64,000 nucleotides of DNA. Source: Escherichia coli (lineage in GTDB: Bacteria; Pseudomonadota; Gammaproteobacteria; Enterobacterales; Enterobacteriaceae). Where the stretch lies: the NCBI RefSeq assembly GCF_050920415.1, contig NZ_CP169309.1; one strand, written 5' to 3'. The translations under genes and the position numbers were made by a program. Below the pieces are notes generated by a model that ran no database searches, had not been told where the DNA came from, and saw only the letters and a list, made by a program, of their open reading frames with translations. Of this stretch, positions 9,669-42,400 are shown piece by piece (the stretch's first letter is position 1; every line of letters starts with the position of its first letter).

Positions 9669-9786
9669 CGGCTTTATTCCTCTTCTGCGGAAGAGGATTA
9701 GGGTGAGGAACATTTACGCCTCACCCTCACTCTCTTCGCAAGGAGAGAGGTTCACAATTCACTGCACGTTTCAGGAACCATCGCTC

Positions 9787-12660
9787 ATGACACAGACGTT
9801 AAGCCAGCTTGAAAACAGCGGCGCTTTTATTGAACGCCATATCGGACCGGACGCCGCGCAACAGCAAGAAATGCTGAATGCCGTTGGCGCACAATCGTTA
9901 AACGCGCTGACCGGCCAGATTGTGCCGAAAGATATTCAGCTTGCGACCCCGCCGCAGGTTGGCGCACCGGCGACCGAATACGCCGCGCTGGCGGAACTCA
10001 AGGCTATTGCCAGTCGCAATAAACGCTTCACGTCTTACATCGGCATGGGTTACACCGCCGTGCAGCTACCGCCGGTTATCCTGCGTAACATGCTGGAAAA
10101 TCCGGGCTGGTATACCGCGTATACTCCGTATCAACCTGAAGTCTCCCAGGGCCGCCTTGAAGCACTGCTTAACTTCCAGCAGGTAACGCTGGATTTGACC
10201 GGGCTGGATATGGCCTCTGCTTCTTTGTTGGATGAAGCCACCGCTGCCGCCGAAGCAATGGCGATGGCAAAACGCGTCAGTAAACTGAAAAATGCCAACC
10301 GCTTCTTCGTTGCTTCTGACGTGCATCCGCAAACCTTAGATGTAGTACGTACACGCGCAGAAACCTTTGGTTTTGAAGTGATTGTCGACGATGCGCAAAA
10401 AGTTCTCGATCACCAGGACGTCTTCGGCGTGCTGTTACAGCAGGTTGGCACTACCGGTGAAATTCACGACTACACTGCGCTTATCAGCGAACTGAAATCA
10501 CGCAAAATTGTAGTCAGCGTCGCCGCCGATATTATGGCGCTGGTGCTGTTAACTGCACCGGGTAAACAGGGCGCGGATATTGTCTTTGGTTCGGCGCAAC
10601 GCTTTGGCGTACCGATGGGCTACGGTGGCCCACATGCGGCATTCTTTGCGGCGAAAGATGAATACAAACGCTCAATGCCGGGCCGTATTATTGGTGTATC
10701 GAAAGATGCAGCTGGCAATACCGCGCTGCGCATGGCGATGCAGACTCGCGAGCAACATATTCGCCGTGAGAAAGCGAACTCCAACATTTGTACTTCGCAG
10801 GTACTGCTGGCAAACATCGCCAGCCTGTATGCCGTTTATCACGGCCCGGTTGGCCTGAAACGTATCGCTAATCGCATTCACCGTCTGACCGATATCCTGG
10901 CAGCGGGCCTGCAACAAAAAGGTCTGAAGCTGCGCCATGCGCACTATTTCGATACTTTGTGTGTGGAAGTGGCCGACAAAGCGGGCGTGCTGGCGCGTGC
11001 CGAAGCGGCTGAAATCAACCTGCGTAGCGATATTCTGAATGCGGTTGGGATCACCCTTGATGAAACCACCACGCGCGAAAACGTGATGCAGCTTTTCAGC
11101 GTACTGCTGGGCGATAATCACGGACTGGACATCGACACGCTGGACAAAGACGTGGCTCACGACAGCCGTTCTATTCAGCCTGCAATGCTGCGCGATGACG
11201 AAATTCTCACCCATCCGGTGTTTAATCGCTACCACAGCGAAACCGAAATGATGCGCTATATGCACTCGCTGGAGCGTAAAGATCTGGCGCTGAATCAGGC
11301 GATGATCCCGCTGGGTTCCTGCACCATGAAACTGAACGCCGCCGCCGAGATGATCCCAATCACCTGGCCGGAATTTGCCGAACTGCACCCGTTCTGCCCG
11401 CCGGAACAGGCCGAAGGTTATCAGCAGATGATCGCCCAACTGGCTGACTGGCTGGTGAAACTGACCGGTTACGACGCCGTCTGTATGCAGCCGAACTCTG
11501 GCGCTCAGGGCGAATACGCGGGGCTGCTGGCGATTCGTCATTATCATGAAAGCCGCAACGAAGGGCATCGCGATATCTGCCTGATCCCGGCTTCTGCGCA
11601 CGGCACTAACCCGGCTTCCGCGCATATGGCAGGAATGCAGGTGGTGGTTGTGGCGTGTGATAAAAACGGCAACATCGATCTGACTGACCTGCGCGCGAAA
11701 GCGGAGCAGGCGGGCGATAATCTCTCCTGCATTATGGTGACCTATCCTTCCACCCACGGCGTGTACGAAGAAACGATCCGTGAAGTGTGTGAAATCGTGC
11801 ATCAGTTCGGCGGTCAGGTTTACCTTGATGGCGCGAACATGAACGCCCAGGTTGGTATCACTTCGCCGGGTTTTATTGGTGCGGACGTTTCGCACCTTAA
11901 CCTGCATAAAACTTTCTGCATTCCGCACGGCGGTGGTGGTCCGGGTATGGGACCGATCGGCGTGAAAGCGCATTTGGCACCGTTTGTTCCGGGTCATAGT
12001 GTGGTGCAAATCGAAGGCATGTTAACCCGTCAGGGCGCGGTTTCTGCGGCACCGTTCGGTAGCGCTTCTATTCTGCCAATTAGCTGGATGTACATCCGCA
12101 TGATGGGCGCAGAAGGGCTGAAAAAAGCAAGCCAGGTGGCAATCCTCAACGCCAACTATATTGCCAGCCGCCTGCAGGATGCCTTCCCGGTGCTGTATAC
12201 CGGTCGCGACGGCCGCGTGGCGCACGAATGTATTCTCGATATTCGCCCGCTGAAAGAAGAAACCGGCATCAGCGAGCTGGATATTGCCAAGCGCCTGATC
12301 GACTATGGTTTCCACGCGCCGACTATGTCGTTCCCGGTGGCGGGGACGCTGATGGTTGAACCGACTGAATCTGAAAGCAAAGTGGAACTGGATCGTTTTA
12401 TCGATGCGATGCTGTCTATCCGCGCAGAAATCGACCAGGTGAAAGCCGGTGTTTGGCCGCTGGAAGATAACCCGCTGGTGAACGCGCCGCACATTCAGAG
12501 CGAACTGGTCGCCGAGTGGGCGCATCCGTACAGCCGTGAAGTTGCAGTATTCCCGGCAGGCGTGGCAGACAAATACTGGCCGACAGTGAAACGTCTGGAT
12601 GATGTTTACGGGGACCGTAACCTGTTCTGCTCCTGCGTACCGATTAGCGAATACCAGTAA
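9787..12660 (+). CDS. gcvP: glycine dehydrogenase (decarboxylating), P protein
   Basis: Track ORF 9703..12660 trimmed to ATG 9787 ([21 protein letters not shown]...) giving 957 aa. Confidence 0.97.
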
Positions 12661-12682
12661 TTTACTGATTCGACTATCTTCT

Positions 12683-12710
12683 AAAGGCGCTTCGGCGCCT
12701 TTATTTTTTT
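12683..12710 (+). terminator. Rho-independent terminator after gcvP
   Basis: Hairpin aaaggcgc-ttcg-gcgccttt followed by T-run; ygfF start follows 11 nt later. Confidence 0.7.
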
Positions 12711-12720
12711 AGGAAAACAA

Positions 12721-13520: not shown

Positions 13521-14981
<1,461 letters not shown>

Positions 14982-34441: not shown

Positions 34442-37312
34442 TTATATTTTTTCCAGCGCGGTGAGTATTTTCTCCGGTGTGAAATGCCATTCGCGTAACC
34501 AGATGCCGCAGGCATCGTGAATTGCGGTAGCAATCGCCGGAGCTGCGCCATTTACACCGATTTCTGAGATTGATTTCGCCCCGAATGGGCCGACTTTATC
34601 GTCGCTCGGCACCAGCACAGCGCGGAAATCACGCGGAATGTCACCAATTTTCGGTGCGCCGTAACTGCGTAAATCACGCGTTAACGGGTGGCCTTCGGCG
34701 TCATAAATGATTTCTTCGCTCATACTGTGCCCGATAGCACGCAGGGTGGCACCGTAGATTTGTCCCAACGCTAACTCTGGATTGACCGGTGTACCGCAGT
34801 CCAGCAAGGCATAGAATTTATCCAGGCGGATTTCACCCGTACGTGTGTTGACGGCAACTTCAGCAAAGTTTGCGCCATACGGGAAGGCGAAATCAGGCGT
34901 GATATAACTGGCAGTTCCCACCAGTGAACCAAAACCGGTGCCGGTTTCGCCTTTATGGGCAATATCACCGAAACTAACTTCGCCTTTCTTGCCGCGAACG
35001 ACACCCGGCGTTGCCAGTTGAACATCCTCCAGGGGTTCCCCCAGCATTTGTGCGCCGTGGAACAGGATTTTCTCTCGGAGGTTTTCTGCCGCCATACGCG
35101 CCGCGTTGCCGGAGAAACATGTACCGGACGAGGCATATGCGCCTTTATCAAACAGCGCATGATCGGTATCACCGGAGATAACATGCACGTCCTGCGGTGG
35201 GCAGTGCAGCACTTCTGCTGCCAGTTTCGTCACAACCGTATCCAGACCAGTACCAATATCCGCACCGCCAGAATGAACGATAAAGGTACCGTCTGATTCC
35301 AGTTTGATCATGCAGTTAGCCTGATCGATATCCGGGATCCCTGATTTCTGCATGATAATGGCGACGCCACGACCGATGTGCCAGTCACCGTTTTGTGGTT
35401 TTGGTGAAGACCATTGGATCATCTCGCGACCCTGACGCAGGATCTCTTCCAGTGCGCAGCTGGCGGCGGAAGGAACGGAGGTCGGCGCTTTACCTTCACC
35501 GATTGCACCGAGAATTTTCAGCTCTTGCCCTTCGTGTACCCGGTTACGTTCGATAATTTCCAGTTGGTCGATCTGTAACTGTTCAGCCAGTTCCGCTAAT
35601 GCCATGGTGATAGCGAAGTTACCTTTCGGTGCGCCATAACCCTGATAAGCACCATTTGGGCAAATGTTGCTGTAGTAGGTGGTGACCTGGAAATCGACGT
35701 TATCGCACGGATATAACGGCAGCGACAGCGCCGGTCCGTTACACGGTACGGTGAGTGAGTGGTTGCCGTAAGGGCCTGTGTTGGCGCGGAAATCCATCTT
35801 CACAGCCGTCAGGCGACCATCTTTCTTTGCCCCCAGTTTGACGGTGACTTTCGCGACGTGACGAGAGGTGTTAGCAATAAACTCTTCTTCACGAGTGTAG
35901 CGGAACAGTACCGGACGCCCGGTCACGCAGGTTGCCCAGGCGCACACTTCTTCCAGCAGGATGTCCTGTTTAGACCCAAAACCGCCGCCAACTCGCTCTT
36001 TAATGACATGAACTTTATGTTGTTTCATGCCCACGAGGCGCGCGACCTGGCGGCGTAAGTGCCATGGTACCTGGGTGGAGGCGTGGATAACCAGACGATC
36101 GCCGTCCATACGGGTAAAGCAGATATGAGTTTCAGTCGGGCACTGCTGCGCCTGCGTTGAGTTATAGGTTCGCTCAATGATCACATCGGCATCGGCAAAG
36201 CCTTTGTCCATATCGCCAATATGACCATGAATACTGGCGGCGATATTTTTACGGGGGCGAGAACCGATCGGGAAGTTGATGATCATATGCTCGCCGCGCT
36301 GGGCTGCATGGCTGTTATCGTCTTCCAGAGTATCTGGCGCACCAGCAACATACACCACCGGTTCATCGTGCACGACAGGCGCATCTTCCGCCATTGCCTC
36401 GTCAATCGACATTACAGGTTTAAGCACTTCATATTCAACGTCGATGAGCTTCAGTGCTTCGAGCGCAATTTCTTCACTTTCTGCGACGACCGCAGCAACG
36501 CGATCGCCGACGTGACGCATTTTCTTGCCGAACATACGGCGGTCAAGCGGTGACGGTTCCGGTGCGCTCTGACCACCCGGGGTGTAGTAGATATCCGGGC
36601 AATTCAGATGAGTAATAACGTGAACGACGCCTGGTAAGGCTTCAGCTTTGCTGACATCCAGGTGAGTAATCAGTGCGTGAGCGTGAGGGCTACGTAACAT
36701 TTTAATGACGCAGGCGTCAGCCGTTACGCGGTCTTCAACATAGCAGGGTTTCGCCTGCACCATTTTTGCGGCATCAGTTTTAGGATAATGCTTACCAATG
36801 ACTTCAAGGTCATCGCGGAAAGTCGGAGCGATATCAATGGTGGCCTGCGGGTTATTTTTACGTGCAACCGCCAGTTCAATGACCTGATAGTATTGTTGCC
36901 AGCCTGCATCGCGACTGAACAAACCAGAAAGCGCGTCGTCGATCTCTTCGCGGGTCGGTGCGGCGATACGCTCGAGCAGATCAGTGATAATCAGAGCAGC
37001 AGCTGGATCGTTATAACCAGACTGCACCACGCCAACATCAACCATTGCCTGTTGAACCAGACTTAACTCGTTCCATTTTCCCAGAGACTCTGCGGTACGA
37101 ATATTAGCCTTCTCTATCTGTGCGGCAATAAGTAAGGACGCGTTGACGATATTACCGTTAAAGATAATTGCGTCAGAACCGGCAAAACCGAATCCATCAT
37201 CGCTGTTGCGTACAGAGTGCATTCCCATGTTAAACAACAGCTTTTGCACGTTTTCACCAGGATTAACGGTTAGCTCCTGGGGCGTGCCATTTAATGTAAA
37301 GTGGATGATCAT
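34442..37312 (-). CDS. xdhD: molybdopterin-binding oxidoreductase subunit with N-terminal 2Fe-2S domain (xanthine dehydrogenase-like)
   Basis: 956 aa ORF recognised as XdhD (YgfN). Confidence 0.92.
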   Translation of the reverse strand: MIIHFTLNGTPQELTVNPGENVQKLLFNMGMHSVRNSDDGFGFAGSDAIIFNGNIVNASLLIAAQIEKANIRTAESLGKWNELSLVQQAMVDVGVVQSGYNDPAAALIITDLLERIAAPTREEIDDALSGLFSRDAGWQQYYQVIELAVARKNNPQATIDIAPTFRDDLEVIGKHYPKTDAAKMVQAKPCYVEDRVTADACVIKMLRSPHAHALITHLDVSKAEALPGVVHVITHLNCPDIYYTPGGQSAPEPSPLDRRMFGKKMRHVGDRVAAVVAESEEIALEALKLIDVEYEVLKPVMSIDEAMAEDAPVVHDEPVVYVAGAPDTLEDDNSHAAQRGEHMIINFPIGSRPRKNIAASIHGHIGDMDKGFADADVIIERTYNSTQAQQCPTETHICFTRMDGDRLVIHASTQVPWHLRRQVARLVGMKQHKVHVIKERVGGGFGSKQDILLEEVCAWATCVTGRPVLFRYTREEEFIANTSRHVAKVTVKLGAKKDGRLTAVKMDFRANTGPYGNHSLTVPCNGPALSLPLYPCDNVDFQVTTYYSNICPNGAYQGYGAPKGNFAITMALAELAEQLQIDQLEIIERNRVHEGQELKILGAIGEGKAPTSVPSAASCALEEILRQGREMIQWSSPKPQNGDWHIGRGVAIIMQKSGIPDIDQANCMIKLESDGTFIVHSGGADIGTGLDTVVTKLAAEVLHCPPQDVHVISGDTDHALFDKGAYASSGTCFSGNAARMAAENLREKILFHGAQMLGEPLEDVQLATPGVVRGKKGEVSFGDIAHKGETGTGFGSLVGTASYITPDFAFPYGANFAEVAVNTRTGEIRLDKFYALLDCGTPVNPELALGQIYGATLRAIGHSMSEEIIYDAEGHPLTRDLRSYGAPKIGDIPRDFRAVLVPSDDKVGPFGAKSISEIGVNGAAPAIATAIHDACGIWLREWHFTPEKILTALEKI

Positions 37313-38088
37313 ACGGCTTCCTCCCCAGCCTGTTGGCAGTCGGCATAAAGGTCGGCTACCAGAACTCCCGTGATATAGCGTTTATAGGCCACGCTGCCCC
37401 GCAAATCTTCCTGCGGGAAAATGGCGTTGGCGACAGCCTGTTCAAGGGCATCGCCTTCCAGGTTTTGTTTTTCAACATCGTGCAGACGCAGTGCTTTACT
37501 GGCCACGCCATCCAACGCAATTCGCATACCGTCGTGATCGGTTAACGCAACGGCTGCCGTTACTACCGTTAACCCAGCCTGAGAACGGCTAATTTTGCGA
37601 GTCGTACAGGTGCGATACGGATCTTTAATGATGATTTCGGTTAGCAGGCGATCGCATGGGCAGGCCAGGTACTCCTCAATTGACAGAGTTTCACCGTTGC
37701 CAAAAACCAGTTCGGCATCCAGTGCCAGCAGGACGGGAAGCAGCACCGACTCTTCCTGCCGGGCGGCGATTTCACCACCAATGGTCGACTGATTACGAAT
37801 ATGGCGAGAGTAGACAAAGCCGAGGGCCTCACGCAGTGCTGCAGGAATAAACCGTGCATCACGCAGTGTTTGCAAGCGAGACATTGCGCCAATCCGCAAT
37901 GCACCGTTATCCCAGTCAACCCAGTCCAGTTCCAGATCCTGTAAGGATATGGCAATCTTTTTATCGGTACGGGTTGGTGTGGCGTTGAGTTTACTGCCTC
38001 CGGCGAACCAGACGGCTTCATCCTGGTAGCGGCGCTTCAGTTCCAGCGCCTGTTCGACAGAGTCGGGCCTGAAAAATTGTTCAATCAT
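37309..38088 (-). CDS. ygfM: FAD-binding subunit of molybdenum hydroxylase (CO dehydrogenase flavoprotein-like)
   Basis: 259 aa; overlaps xdhD start by 4 nt. Confidence 0.9.
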   Translation of the reverse strand: MIEQFFRPDSVEQALELKRRYQDEAVWFAGGSKLNATPTRTDKKIAISLQDLELDWVDWDNGALRIGAMSRLQTLRDARFIPAALREALGFVYSRHIRNQSTIGGEIAARQEESVLLPVLLALDAELVFGNGETLSIEEYLACPCDRLLTEIIIKDPYRTCTTRKISRSQAGLTVVTAAVALTDHDGMRIALDGVASKALRLHDVEKQNLEGDALEQAVANAIFPQEDLRGSVAYKRYITGVLVADLYADCQQAGEEAV

Positions 38089-38138
38089 CTTCTTTCCTTA
38101 TTTAACCCTCTTCCCTGCGGGAAGAGGGTATTTGTCAT

Positions 38139-39467
38139 TTATGCCAGCGCATCCATCCGACGCCACATACTGGCAGCGGCTTTTTGGGCTTGCGCATAAA
38201 TGGAATCGCAATCGAAGTTAAACTGACGGTCTTCATAGACCATCATGCCATTGACCATCACGCTATGAACGCTGCCTGAGCCCATACCGAAAGCGATATG
38301 CCCGGCGATATTGTCTGCCAGCAGCGGCGTCGGCGAGTTGTAATCGCAAATGGTTAAATCGGCTTTGTAACCGGCTTCCAGAAGGCCAAATTTCGCGCCA
38401 AAATTGCGGCTCATCAGTTCGTTGCCGTTAGCCAGTGCTTTGGCAAAACTGTCAGGCCACAGCGGACCACCCGCATCGCGATGTTTAAAGAAGGCAAATT
38501 TCATCTCTTCAAACATATCTGAACCAATACCGTCCGTACCCAACGCCAGATTGCGGATGTCGCAAAGATGATGGTTGTAGCCGACATGGTTGTTCATGTT
38601 TGAACGGGCGTTATGCACCAGGAATGCATCACGCTGATTGAGCAACGCGATGTCGTCTTTAGACAGATAAAGCCCATGAGCGACCAGCGTTTTGCTGTCG
38701 ATGAGATCGAATTGCGCTAATCGTGCCAGCAGATCTTTGCCGTACCAGTGATGACTATGGGAAACATCGTAAAGGTCTTCCGCAGCGTGAATATGTAAAC
38801 CACGGCCTGTGGCTTTCACGGCCTCACGCAGCATTTCCAGACCGGCATCCGGCACAGTAAACGGCGCGTGAGCACCAATATGAGCTTCTACCAGATACGG
38901 TTCAGTTGCCGCTTTCTTCGCATCATCAATCTGACGGGCGAAGCGGATATTTTCCTCTACTCCTTCCTGTAGTTCTTTAATGCCGTTGTTACGGTCAGTG
39001 GTTTCAAAACAGGTCATCGCACGCAGGCCAACTTTTAAAAATGCGTTGCGCAATGTGGAGAGCGACCCGCTGATATACGCCGGAGAGGCATGGTGATCGA
39101 TAACAGATGTACAGCCGCTCTTAATCGCTTCCAGTGAACAAATCAGTCCGCTGTAATAGAGCGACTCTTCATCAAGGGCGCGATCGAGCCGCCACCAGAG
39201 ATTTTTCAGCGTTGAAATGAAATCCGGGCAGGGGGCGATGTTTGCCATAATTCCGCGGGACAGCCCCGAGTAAAAATGGTTGTGCGAGCAGACAATTCCC
39301 GGCATCACAATCCGACCATGCATCTCTTTGTAGTTGGCATCGGGGTAGCGTTGCGTCAGAGCATCGCCTATAGCGACAATCACATCATTTTCGATGGCGA
39401 TATCAACGCCTTCCTGCACTTTCGCCGGGTGTAACTGCACTGCAGTGACATTCTTCAGAATCAACAT
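38139..39467 (-). CDS. ssnA: amidohydrolase-family putative aminohydrolase SsnA
   Basis: 442 aa; metal-binding HxH near N-terminus (CSHNHFYSG). Confidence 0.9.
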   Translation of the reverse strand: MLILKNVTAVQLHPAKVQEGVDIAIENDVIVAIGDALTQRYPDANYKEMHGRIVMPGIVCSHNHFYSGLSRGIMANIAPCPDFISTLKNLWWRLDRALDEESLYYSGLICSLEAIKSGCTSVIDHHASPAYISGSLSTLRNAFLKVGLRAMTCFETTDRNNGIKELQEGVEENIRFARQIDDAKKAATEPYLVEAHIGAHAPFTVPDAGLEMLREAVKATGRGLHIHAAEDLYDVSHSHHWYGKDLLARLAQFDLIDSKTLVAHGLYLSKDDIALLNQRDAFLVHNARSNMNNHVGYNHHLCDIRNLALGTDGIGSDMFEEMKFAFFKHRDAGGPLWPDSFAKALANGNELMSRNFGAKFGLLEAGYKADLTICDYNSPTPLLADNIAGHIAFGMGSGSVHSVMVNGMMVYEDRQFNFDCDSIYAQAQKAAASMWRRMDALA

Positions 39468-39469
39468 GA

Positions 39470-42400
39470 TTACACCTCCACGCGGCCCAGCAGATAATGA
39501 TGATGCTGGTGGACATGGCTAATGATGCGGCACATATCGTTCAGCTCCGGTGGTACGTTGTTGAACTGACCTTCGCTGTCGATGTTTAACACCCAGCTTT
39601 GGTTATTCAGACGTACTCGTACCCGGCAATCTTCCACAAGGAAGCCTGGGTTGCTGCTGTTATCAAAGTCTTGCGACAGGCTGAAGACGGTGATTTTGTC
39701 TTTGTACGGTTTACCGTTCCACGGACAGAACTGAGCGCAGTTGCCGCATTCGTTACAGTAAGCGTCGAGGTGCAGCGTCTGGAAACGGTTCTGGAAGCCA
39801 GGGACCGCAATGGATACGTTGGCGCGGTTCGGGCAGACATCCACACACTTGCTGCAAACGTAGTTACATTCAAGGCAGCGTGCGGCTTCCTGGGCGACAA
39901 ACGCGTCACGATCGTCGCTATCCACCAGGGTGATAGAGATATCGCCTTTGCGTTGATAGATTTCCGCCGGATTAACGTTGTTCCAGTATTTATCGTTCTG
40001 GTGGGAACGGATATTTTCCCGACTAAGGATGGCATCGGTCGCCCGACGCGCGGTTCCGACAGCAGCGACAATGGAGGATGGTCCGCGCTGTACGTCGCCG
40101 ATCATAAAGACGTCAGTCAGACGAGTTTCGCCATTATGGTCGACGTCTGGCCAGCCGTTTTTGTCCAGCGGCACGCCCATCGCATTCAGGGCTTCAGTAT
40201 CCTGCTGTTCACCAATGGCGGTGATCAGGCTGTCTACATGCAGTGTAACTGTTTCGTTGGTTTCAACCGGACGGCGACGACCTTTCTCATCAGGTTCGCC
40301 AAGCGACATAACGCGCAAGGTTAAGGTGCCATCAGCATCGAAACGTTCCGGATTATTCAGGAAACGGAACTCCACGCCGTCGTGCAACGCTTCTTCATAC
40401 TCTTCGCGCCATGCTGGCATCTCTTGCAGTGAACGACGGTAAACGACTGTTGCTTTTTCTACGCCTGGAACGCGTAACGCCGCACGAGCGCAGTCCATTG
40501 CGGTGTTACCCGCCCCGACAACGACCACATGTTTGCCCAGCTTGAGCGCTGTGCCCTTGTTGTATTCACGCAGGAAGGGGAGTGATTTCCAGACATTTTG
40601 GTTGTCGCCCGCCAGTTTCACACCGCTATTTTTATCAGTGCCGGTGGCAATCAGAACATAGTGGAAGCCCTGATTTTTTAACTGTTCAACGGTCAGATCG
40701 GGTGAGCAGCCATACTCAAATTTCACGCCGTGAGCGGCAACAAAATCGATATCGTGCTGAATTAACTCTGCAGGAATACGGAACTGAGGAATGATATTTT
40801 TCACCACGCCGCCCGCATTGGCTTCGCGTTCAAACAGCGTAACCGGATGGCCCGCTCTGGCAAGGAAGTAACCTGCTGCCAGACCCGCCGGACCTGCACC
40901 AATCACGGCAACCGGATGGCGTGAACCAGAACCGGCTGGTTTGTGCCAGCGTTGCTTATATTCATCCCAACCTTTTTCCAGCGCGACTTTTTTCAGTTCG
41001 CGGATATTCAGCGCACTGTCGTAATCCAGGCGGGTACAGTTGTATTGGCACTGGTGATCGCAAATATGACCGGTAATGGCGGGCAGGGCGTTGCGTTGGT
41101 AGATGAGTTCCAGTGCGTCGGCATAGCGGTGTTCGCCAAGCAGACGGATGTATTCCGGAATATCTTGCTTGATAGCGCAGGCAGTAACACAGGGGGCAAC
41201 GTAGCAGTCGGTCAGCGGCAGGTCTTCTGCCACTTCAATACGCTCTTCTGGCTTCCAGTGTTTCTGGGTGTATTCCATGGTTAACGCGTCTGCTGCCAGT
41301 CTGTTCAGTCGTTCGACGTCAACGTGGTTAAGCTTCCAGGCGTCGGAGCCTTCCAGCTCGCGCATGCAGGCACTTAAGCGCAGATAGCCGCCAGGTTTCA
41401 GCAGGTCGGTTGCCATAGTAATAGGGCGAATACCAGTATCAAAAATATCGCGGATAGTCAGCTGACTGGCGCCACCGGAATAAGAAATGGGCAGTTTGCC
41501 GTCAAAGGCGCGAGAGAGAACTGCTGCAACATTGATGGAGAGCGGAAACAGCGCACGGCCTGACATATACATCTCTTCACCGGGCAGTGCACCTTTGTTA
41601 TTAATGGTGCCGAGGGTATTGGTCAGTTTGACGCCAAAGCCGAGTGATTTTTCTTTTGCCAGTGCCATCAGGCGTTCCAGCATTTCCAGTGCTTGCGTCA
41701 GCTTGAGGTCGTGATCAAATGACTCTTCTTTTAAGCCTATGTAACCGAAACCGCAGACATCGAGGATCTCACGAACACGCGCGTACCCCAGTAAGGTCGG
41801 GTTGAGTTTCACAAAGGTATTGAGCCCTTTTTCTTCCAGCATGTAGCGGCAAATGGCTTCGATTTCATGCGGAGGACAGCCGTGCATCGTGGAGAGGGTG
41901 ACGCCTTGTACCATGCTGGTGGGGATGCGTGCCGGTAAGGCCTGCAAGCATTCGCGTTTTTCCTGTAAGCCGTGGCGGGCTAAAAATGCGTCATCCTGGA
42001 GTAATTTATTCAGCGTATCGCGATATTGAGCGAATTTCGGATGGTCAGATGCGTCCATCATATTGTCGATGAACTGTTGCATCGGCGGTTGCTTAATACC
42101 TTCGAGGTTGTAACCGACGCTCATATTAAAGATGAACGATTTACCGGAATCAGAAGGCTGGAACATCGCTTCGAGAAGGTGCAGGGCAAACCAGGCTTTG
42201 AGGTATTCATCCCAGGCTTTAAGCAGGGTAAATTCGGTGGACCATTCGGTGTTAAAGCACTCGTCTTCGGCATCAATACAGGGCTTTTCCAGCTCCAGGC
42301 GGTCAAGAATTTGGACGGTTTTTAGTTCGATGAAGCGTCCGCCAGTCAGCCAGGATGTGACAATATTTTGCGCGAGCTGCGTGTGCGGACCAGCGGCAGG

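Follow-up and report, generated by a model that had tools for sequence, protein, structure and literature searches.

The ssnA–ygfM gap and its stem-loop

The window (the whole 64,000 nt stretch of Escherichia coli DNA that was analysed) contains the ygfK-ssnA-ygfM-xdhD operon, in which 2 nt separate ygfK from ssnA and the ygfM and xdhD frames share 4 nt, leaving the 50 nt between ssnA and ygfM as the only real gap of the operon. The genes flanking this gap were identified by BLAST annotation, and the locus is present in 5177 of 5426 E. coli genomes, one of which is 100% identical. YgfK and SsnA, which act together on yanthine, and the XdhD–YgfM urate reductase complex form separate functional units (PMC12507026). 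The features around the gap, in the direction of transcription, are:

38139..39467, minus strand: ssnA coding sequence, an aminohydrolase working with YgfK on yanthine (ORF position and BLAST annotation)
38139..38141, minus strand: ssnA stop codon UAA, 9 nt upstream of the hairpin start (6–9 nt among orthologues)
38105..38129, minus strand: ssnA–ygfM stem-loop, mRNA ACCCUCUUCCC-GCA-GGGAAGAGGGU, 11 bp, -19.9 kcal/mol, with covariation in orthologous gaps
38095..38099, minus strand: ygfM Shine-Dalgarno (SD) core AAGGA, 5 nt past the base of the hairpin, with the AUG (38086–38088) 6 nt further on
37309..38088, minus strand: ygfM coding sequence, FAD subunit of the XdhD–YgfM urate reductase, with a 4 nt overlap with xdhD (ORF position and BLAST annotation)

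Direct reading of the plus strand at 38106–38128 gave ccctcttcc-ctgcg-ggaagaggg, exactly the palindrome described in the original prediction, and additional pairing lengthens the helix to 11 bp around a 3 nt loop (38105–38129, ACCCTCTTCCC-TGC-GGGAAGAGGGT on the plus strand). The gap folds with a predicted energy of -19.9 kcal/mol (z = -5.2), a stability matched by none of 200 shuffled sequences, and the E. coli ygfM SD core is predicted to be mostly unpaired. Scanning positions 37000–39500 against Rfam 15 (E ≤ 10) returned no family for the region, with a lone chance match to an MS2 operator elsewhere (38584–38616). There was no sigma-70 promoter-like site in or near the gap; the sequences ATGACA and TTAAAT were considered as promoter hexamers and rejected, being 27 nt apart in our reading. 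A SECIS, readthrough or frameshift signal was also rejected, since every lineage uses UAA or UAG as the stop codon and a slippery site is lacking.

Conservation and compensatory change in orthologous gaps

A search for YgfM in one genome per species yielded 20 loci, with SsnA encoded directly upstream in 14. The ygfM loci of Kluyvera and Photobacterium have no ssnA upstream and contain weak stems only. The 14 gaps represent 13 distinct strains plus a contaminant contig (L022) duplicating the K-12 gap, and the addition of three E. coli alleles fetched by BLAST resulted in a set of 17 sequences. The hairpin was present in 14/14 ssnA–ygfM gaps, from Escherichia, Citrobacter, Atlantibacter, Pluralibacter, Trabulsiella and Klebsiella indica, and likewise at the same place in the three additional E. 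coli alleles. Gap length was 51–57 nt in 13/14, with the gap of Trabulsiella odontotermitis strain 01 shortened by a deletion, and in all 17 sequences the hairpin starts 6–9 nt past the ssnA stop codon and ends 15–18 nt before the ygfM AUG, so that its position is constant within approximately 2 nt among orthologues. The stem is 9–12 bp long in all gaps except that of K. indica, where only 6 bp are left, which suggests that the element can decay.

The sequence of the stem itself differs strongly between these lineages. About seven distinct stem sequences were found, with the 5′ arm always pyrimidine-rich and the 3′ arm purine-rich:

Escherichia: 5′ arm CCCUCUUCC, 3′ arm GGAAGAGGG
Second E. coli allele and Citrobacter MGH106: 5′ arm CCCCUCUUCU, 3′ arm AGAAGAGGGG
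Citrobacter R56: 5′ arm CCCUCUCCU, 3′ arm AGGAGAGGG
Atlantibacter and Citrobacter freundii M-21: 5′ arm CGCCUCCCG, 3′ arm CGGGAGGCG
Pluralibacter: 5′ arm UUUCUCCCCC, 3′ arm GGGGGAGAAA
Trabulsiella: 5′ arm CCUCCCCGC, 3′ arm GCGGGGAGG
Klebsiella indica: decayed, 6 bp

In a hand-anchored alignment, which was fitted to the helix and thus pairs at 99.4% by construction, 12/12 pairs had changed on both sides, with a covariation score of 0.656 versus 0.26 in shuffles and approximately 0.19 in slid controls. RNAalifold on an unfitted MAFFT alignment recovered the same 9 bp helix with compensatory change at 9/9 pairs, and the gap z-scores in five lineages were -5.2, -4.6, -3.6, -3.0 and -3.0. A functionless chance palindrome, of which a 9 bp perfect stem would by our own estimate arise roughly once in 64 kb of random DNA, is contradicted by the fixed position in six genera, the compensatory changes and the strongly negative z-scores, and is scarcely credible.

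Compensatory change was also apparent within Escherichia. There are two main E. coli alleles of the ssnA–ygfM gap, found in about 3970 and 1199 genomes, which differ at 12/50 gap positions with almost identical flanking coding sequence. Both fold into helices of 11–12 bp (12 bp for the 1199-genome allele), because two pairs switched on both sides, one from A-U or G.U to C-G and the other from C-G to U-A. The innermost pair shows a stepwise transition within the genus, from C-G in K-12 via U.G in E1V33 and E. whittamii to U-A in E69.

The number of G.U pairs on the mRNA-sense strand (7 cells versus 1 C.A) provides modest evidence that the mRNA may be the molecule that folds, although in Citrobacter MGH106 this strand signal runs the opposite way. 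Mean folding energies of the sense and antisense strands are equal (-18.4 versus -18.5 kcal/mol) and do not discriminate between them, so that strand assignment depends on gene context and a small number of G.U pairs. The equal energies would also suit a DNA-level palindrome without a role in RNA, either an operator bound by a dimeric regulator or a quasi-palindrome whose perfection is due to template-switch repair, and palindromes with a pyrimidine and a purine arm can be protein sites, such as the CueR box CCTTCCC-GTAAG-GGGAAGG upstream of cueO. We consider this highly improbable, as the stems are wholly different between genera while pairing is kept, whereas a protein site would conserve sequence, and G.U pairs persist in large clades (the outer G.U of the K-12 type), where template-switch correction would erase them. 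Furthermore, there is no promoter-like context, and the palindrome keeps a fixed place relative to the stop and start codons. It is very probably a conserved RNA structure under selection, and of the options raised in the original prediction, that of an RNA-level intercistronic element is the most likely, as all ssnA–ygfM gaps examined show its conservation and compensatory change.

Transcription termination and translation initiation

The ssnA–ygfM hairpin resembles a Rho-independent terminator in being GC-rich, with 9–12 bp and a short loop. An intrinsic terminator, acting either partially after ssnA or on antisense transcription, would be consistent with the GC-rich 11 bp stem, with the UUAAAU following it on the sense strand and with a loose consensus scan, which flagged the plus (antisense) strand with ATTTGTCATT as the tail. 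However, a U-tract is conserved on neither strand: the sense tails are UUAAAU, AAAUUA, AUUGAU, AAAAAC, AGCCGA and CCAAGA, and the T-rich antisense tail is specific to the window allele, with K-12 having CATCTGTC instead. Nor does the plus strand contain a gene or promoter-like site in need of a terminator, which makes this explanation very improbable. A Rho-independent terminator on the sense strand, where the tail is UUAAAUAAGG, was rejected since no lineage has a conserved U-run, and unlike a terminator, the hairpin is followed by the ygfM ribosome-binding site only 5–8 nt on.

The proximity to ygfM raises the question of a translation-initiation or coupling element, which could insulate the SD sequence, bring stop and start codons together for re-initiation, or hide an SD-like sequence in its purine arm. 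The constant distance between hairpin and AUG (15–18 nt) would fit such a role, as would the GGAG or GAGG that is always present in the 3′ arm opposite CCUC or CUCC in the 5′ arm, and in the minimum free energy structures of Atlantibacter, Trabulsiella and Citrobacter R56 the bases after the stop codon pair with the SD sequence. However, the SD-like content is a trivial outcome of G-rich purine arms, no alternative pairing of the switch type is conserved, and while the GAGG/AGGA homologous to the ygfM SD core aligns in all orthologues, its probability of being unpaired ranges from 0.22 to 0.78 across lineages, with the E. coli SD open when the hairpin is intact. A role in initiation or coupling thus seems rather unlikely, and SD sequestration or a translational switch was rejected because the predicted accessibility is inconsistent among lineages. 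A mini-ORF or readthrough product was likewise rejected: the 17-codon frame from the UAA to the ygfM AUG in E. coli is not maintained elsewhere, since the gap lengths (51, 53, 54, 56 and 57 nt) correspond to different frames, and the 1199-genome allele has lost the start codon.

A decayed BoxC element between gcvH and gcvP

The window contains a second hairpin with a similar stem in the gap between gcvH and gcvP, and the original prediction had described the two as copies of one small palindrome. The features are:

9678..9697, plus strand: gcvH–gcvP hairpin 1, UCCUCUUC-UGCG-GAAGAGGA, pyrimidine and purine blocks of a decayed BoxC/TM_ECO unit
9698..9749, plus strand: remainder of the decayed BoxC inverted pair, with TTA, GGGTGAGG...CCTCACCC (central hairpin 2), TCA and CTCTCTTC-GCAA-GGAGAGAG (hairpin 3)

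Positions 9679–9696 read CCTCTTC-TGCG-GAAGAGG, with 8 bp when 9678/9697 is counted, and the gap as a whole reads TCCTCTTC-TGCG-GAAGAGGA-TTA-GGGTGAGGA...CCTCACCC-TCA-CTCTCTTC-GCAA-GGAGAGAG. The TM_ECO (BoxC/PIT) triplex motif has been described as CCCTCNCCC-N3-6-GGGNGAGGG-N3-GGGNGAGGG, with the type A form CCCTCTCCC-N3-6-GGGAGAGGG-TTA, and is present in K-12 in 23 copies, all intergenic and five as inverted pairs, at loci which vary between strains (Holder et al. 2015, PMC4666352). The gcvH–gcvP element is collinear with the canonical TM_ECO pairs #1+2 and #10+11 (K-12 164,547 and 3,045,989), with 32 invariant columns, and its GGAAGAGGA-TTA-GGGTGAGGA follows the consensus pattern of purine block, linker and third block with 3 mismatches. 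Over 9678–9749 the three-block unit thus occurs as an inverted pair, with three consecutive hairpins and GGGTGAGG/CCTCACCC at the centre. The literal consensus was not matched, the element is absent from the 23 listed copies, and it scored only 12.4 and 7.7 bits against a TM_ECO profile, which we made from a hand alignment and searched with nhmmer over approximately 420 kb. We identify it as a BoxC/PIT/TM_ECO inverted pair with hairpin 1 as its first hairpin, and as a decayed copy because it is off the 23-copy list and has a low profile score despite its collinearity; its differences from BoxC comprise C>T and G>A changes.

The content of the gcvH–gcvP gap varies between genera, with a canonical BoxC inverted pair (35 and 22 bits) in an Enterobacter-like contig, REP pairs in Salmonella and Citrobacter, and an unrelated 15 bp hairpin in Atlantibacter, and the last 33 nt or so before the gcvP AUG are conserved in all five genera compared. 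Within E. coli the element is fixed (5425/5426 genomes), but only 20 of the 5425 belong to the same ≥99% identity class as the gap of the window. Five other alleles that were read, including that of K-12, have GGAGAGG and TCA in place of GAAGAGG and TTA, so that exact identity with the ssnA–ygfM stem is a rare, derived state.

Relationship between the two hairpins

The original prediction suggested that the two hairpins share stem sequence and loop core, and may be members of a dispersed repeat family. The 7 nt arm is indeed identical in the window, but this is allele-specific, as K-12 and four other alleles have CCTCTTC-TGCG-GGAGAGG between gcvH and gcvP. Similarly, the TGCG loop core is shared on the plus DNA strand only; the mRNA loops differ (UGCG for gcvH–gcvP, CGCAG or GCA for ssnA–ygfM) because the operons lie on opposite strands. 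CCTCTTC-N3-8-GAAGAGG had two matches only in the window, at these two sites, and none in 100 dinucleotide shuffles. As the window has 42 perfect hairpins of at least 7 bp, giving approximately 860 pairs, a shared 7-mer arm is not very improbable, and by our own rough estimate the same arm in one pair of hairpins would be about a 1-in-10 event after multiple comparison, versus a naive 10^-3.

A census of K-12 sequence comprised 400 kb (positions 1–400,000) and the 3.01–3.05 Mb region. The first of these had no match to CCTCTTC..GAAGAGG, with the 6 bp core CTCTTC..GAAGAG found once, inside prpE, and the second had the motif at the ssnA–ygfM site only. This sample puts the exact motif below approximately 35 copies per genome, the point estimate being zero when the known sites are set aside. 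In the 5426 E. coli genomes, blastn placed the ssnA–ygfM region at one site per genome in all 5177 genomes with the locus and the gcvH–gcvP region at one site per genome, up to two, and detected no second near-identical copy of either region at a similarity of about ≥20 nt; copies sharing just arms of 7–9 nt are invisible to blastn. The 400 kb of K-12 contain 8 perfect hairpins of ≥8 bp whose 5′ arm is pyrimidine, versus 1.25 in shuffles, and three of the 8 are BoxC copies.

The gcvH–gcvP hairpin thus does belong to a dispersed family, BoxC/PIT/TM_ECO, but the ssnA–ygfM hairpin is characterised by evolution in place with lineage-specific stems. It may still have started as an old BoxC/PIT/TM_ECO unit, with the third block lost or turned into the ygfM SD region, which would make the two hairpins genuinely related and would be compatible with a later function in RNA. 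Like BoxC, it is intergenic and consists of a pyrimidine arm followed by a purine arm, resembling CCCTCNCCC...GGGNGAGGG (8/9 and 8/9), with TTA next. The mRNA strand reads CCCTCTTCC-N5-GGAAGAGGG-TTA, which matches type A CCCTCTCCC-N3-6-GGGAGAGGG-TTA at 8/9, 8/9 and 3/3 positions, and part of this similarity may reflect common origin instead of coincidence. When CCCTCTTCC/GGAAGAGGG were compared with the first and second blocks CCCTCNCCC/GGGNGAGGG (8/9 and 8/9), a single compensated pair was off consensus, so that the literal consensus was not matched, and the nhmmer score (10.1 bits, E = 0.41) was the best non-canonical match to the TM_ECO profile in 420 kb; Escherichia sp. E1V33 reached 13.7 bits. 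In Citrobacter R56 the sequence is CCCTCTCCT-TCTG-AGGAGAGGG-AT-TGATGAGGA, the last block matching GGGTGAGGG at 6/9 positions, and decay of BoxC by C>T and G>A is documented at gcvH–gcvP.

However, E-values of 0.03–0.4 in 420 kb correspond to about 4–5 genome-wide, and true BoxC copies score 28–44 bits versus 10 bits here. The profile match ends at position 26 of 36, before the third block: no GGGNGAGGG follows after an N3 linker, as past TTA comes AATAAGGAA, which matches at 1/9 positions (4/9 with a 1 nt shift), and without this block the hairpin, unlike BoxC, has no triplex potential. The purine-rich tail is accounted for by the ribosome-binding site. The stems of Atlantibacter and Trabulsiella score nil, and that of Pluralibacter just 2.5 bits on the opposite strand. 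BoxC loci are multicopy and variable between strains (PMC4666352), whereas the ssnA–ygfM hairpin has a single site in each of 5177 genomes, is found wherever the locus exists, and is fixed and orthologous across six genera. By the defining third block, the hairpin as read here is not a BoxC member, and an origin from BoxC, although possible, seems unlikely. A domesticated unit, with the hairpin fixed as mRNA structure and the third purine block recruited as ygfM ribosome-binding site, is more doubtful still; if true, it would mean that BoxC repeats can be exapted as intra-operon RNA elements. A REP/BIME element, a type with hundreds of copies, was also considered, and was rejected as the consensus of the GCCGGATG...CATCCGGC type does not occur in the ssnA–ygfM gap.

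The notion of two copies of the same palindrome is thus not tenable, given the lack of a BoxC third block at ssnA–ygfM, its score of 10 bits and the absence of the motif from 400 kb of K-12. Coincidence, also raised originally, describes the exact match best: the 7 bp identity is confined to the rare gcvH–gcvP allele class of the window and appears to be coincidental, and the general likeness arises because the decayed BoxC core CCCTCTCCC/GGGAGAGGG shares the type of a pyrimidine arm and a purine arm. Identity of short stems is accordingly weak evidence for membership of a family.

A putative barrier at the boundary of two enzyme modules

Intercistronic stem-loops which stabilise mRNA include the REP sequences between malE and malF and the hairpins of the puf and pap operons. 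Structures of this kind, as in malEFG, puf and pap, are classical obstacles to 3′→5′ exonucleases or markers of processed ends, and allow neighbouring segments of a single transcript to differ in stability. Like these, the ssnA–ygfM hairpin is a GC-rich and stable stem-loop that lacks a U-tract and lies within an operon, in a gap outside translated regions, where the genes on either side may require different output; unlike REP, it is single-copy and locus-specific. A stable, conserved intra-operon stem with compensatory evolution, as found at ssnA–ygfM, is what a decay-barrier stem-loop should look like, and we consider the hairpin a previously undescribed element of a well-known type.

We propose that the stem-loop is formed on the polycistronic ygfK-ssnA-ygfM-xdhD mRNA and has been inherited vertically, and would not be a copy of a mobile repeat. 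It is located at the boundary of the enzyme modules YgfK+SsnA and YgfM–XdhD and, judging from ribosome dimensions, would lie between the footprints of the terminating and the initiating ribosome, and as this spacing is clear of both footprints, the hairpin would persist on translated mRNA. By analogy with the systems above it may act as an RNA-end-defining barrier, which halts 3′→5′ exonucleases or caps a processed or terminated end, and which would let the upstream ygfK-ssnA and downstream ygfM-xdhD segments differ in stability and output. The barrier mechanism on its own is put forward tentatively, as a plausible reading which falls somewhat short of even confidence. The combined explanation of a vertically inherited stem-loop maintained by selection, with a role as RNA-end barrier and a coincidental likeness to gcvH–gcvP, is the one we favour by a small degree.

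The gcvTHP operon provides a possible local precedent for such a barrier. It has an internal transcript end after gcvH, with the upstream genes expressed above the downstream gene (PMC7815308; for Dickeya, PMC9239193). In K-12, Term-seq identified a 3′ end at 3,049,097, 5 nt past hairpin 2, with a score of 412,219, compared to 36,065 for the gcvP terminator (PMC7815308 supplement). As at this internal end, the ssnA–ygfM hairpin lies in an intercistronic gap of an operon that encodes parts of one pathway, but gcvH–gcvP has three hairpins, an origin from a repeat and a measured 3′ end, whereas ssnA–ygfM has one hairpin, recognised through comparison of sequences. The Term-seq tables searched had no entries for ssnA or ygfM, probably because the operon was silent in those conditions.

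For annotation, the 25 nt palindrome would be best described as a conserved mRNA structure at the module boundary of the recently characterised operon for reductive urate degradation, rather than as a terminator or repeat. One effect of the hairpin may be to set the ratio of YgfK–SsnA to YgfM–XdhD expression, which would be relevant to engineered urate-degrading E. coli strains. To our knowledge, the function of BoxC repeats has been unexplained since the 1990s. If the ssnA–ygfM hairpin were a domesticated BoxC unit, the recurrence of BoxC, REP and other hairpins in operon gaps such as gcvH–gcvP could represent selection for structures that define RNA ends. That different genera fill the gcvH–gcvP gap with different palindromes, and that a strong RNA 3′ end coincides with it, is a modest but testable hint of what BoxC and REP elements do within operons.

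RNA 3' end and variation in the gcvH–gcvP gap

The gcvH–gcvP element, a decayed inverted pair of the BoxC intergenic repeat which contains three hairpins, coincides with an RNA 3' end listed as 'orphan' in published Term-seq data. This end is very strong, with a score of 412,219 versus 36,065 for the gcvP terminator (PMC7815308), and lies at K-12 3,049,097 on the minus strand (window 9720-9735), 5 nt past the central hairpin. The content of the gcvH–gcvP gap differs by genus: in the sequences compared (L037-L040), it holds REP pairs in Salmonella and Citrobacter, a canonical BoxC pair in an Enterobacter-like contig and a long unrelated hairpin in Atlantibacter. Conservation is seen in the final ~33 nt ahead of the gcvP AUG. 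This gap resembles a landing pad, or a site under selection, for strong palindromic structures. Within E. coli, strain TW10590 (L036) has a 6-nt duplication (CCTCAC) in the 3' arm of the central hairpin (hairpin 2), which exemplifies small-scale instability of the decayed BoxC pair.

A canonical BoxC/TM_ECO inverted pair (#10+#11) is located between gcvP and ygfF in K-12 (3,045,989-3,046,087; 35990-36088 of the compared K-12 segment L001), and the corresponding region of the window strain (12660-12720) contains the gcvP terminator alone, without this pair. The gcvP–ygfF BoxC pair is a presence/absence polymorphism between K-12 and the window strain, within the span of the window.

Similar palindromes in K-12

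An 11-bp hairpin, ATTTCCTTTTC-TGCG-GAAAAGGAAAT, was found at K-12 314,244-314,269 (14244-14269 of segment L031), a non-coding region that precedes the eaeH pseudogene. It has the TGCG loop in common with the gcvH–gcvP hairpin core and differs from it by one compensated pair, and the third block of BoxC is absent at this site. A further palindrome with a pyrimidine arm and a purine arm, CCTTCCC-GTAAG-GGGAAGG, is located upstream of cueO (K-12 137,011; 37011-37029 of segment L028). This sequence, the CueR operator, illustrates that palindromes of the pyrimidine-arm/purine-arm type can serve as protein sites.

Variation in the ssnA–ygfM gap

The gap upstream of ygfM has a second allele in E. coli, represented by strain 2/0 (L002) and present in 1199 genomes, with about 88% identity over 111 nt. 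The divergence is focused on the 50-nt ssnA–ygfM gap, with 12 differences, one of which turns UGA into UAA in the overlapping frame, and an almost identical gap was found in Citrobacter sp. MGH106 (L008). The second allele may be ancient or may have been imported by recombination. The gap also contains a 17-codon ORF on the minus strand (window 38086-38138), running from an AUG right after the ssnA UAA to a UGA overlapping the ygfM AUG; this ORF is not conserved, as its start reads AUA in the second allele and other frames are found in other genera.

In Trabulsiella odontotermitis strain 01 (L020, 2440-2510), a deletion brings the hairpin's 3' arm right up against codon 3 of ygfM, with loss of the Shine-Dalgarno sequence and start codon; the gene is a pseudogene here, or else the assembly is in error. 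The 7.7-kb contig NZ_JAUFQN010000014.1 (L022), labelled Flavobacterium paronense, has an E. coli K-12-like ssnA–ygfM junction and a frameshifted ssnA. Its presence in this public assembly is probably explained by contamination or by poor contig quality. In Kluyvera (L010, L011 and L013), ygfM is preceded not by ssnA but by xdhABC-like genes, with a gap of ~365 nt, and the stems upstream of its ribosome-binding site are weak, consisting only of CTCTC..GAGAG or CCCTCT..AGAGGG.
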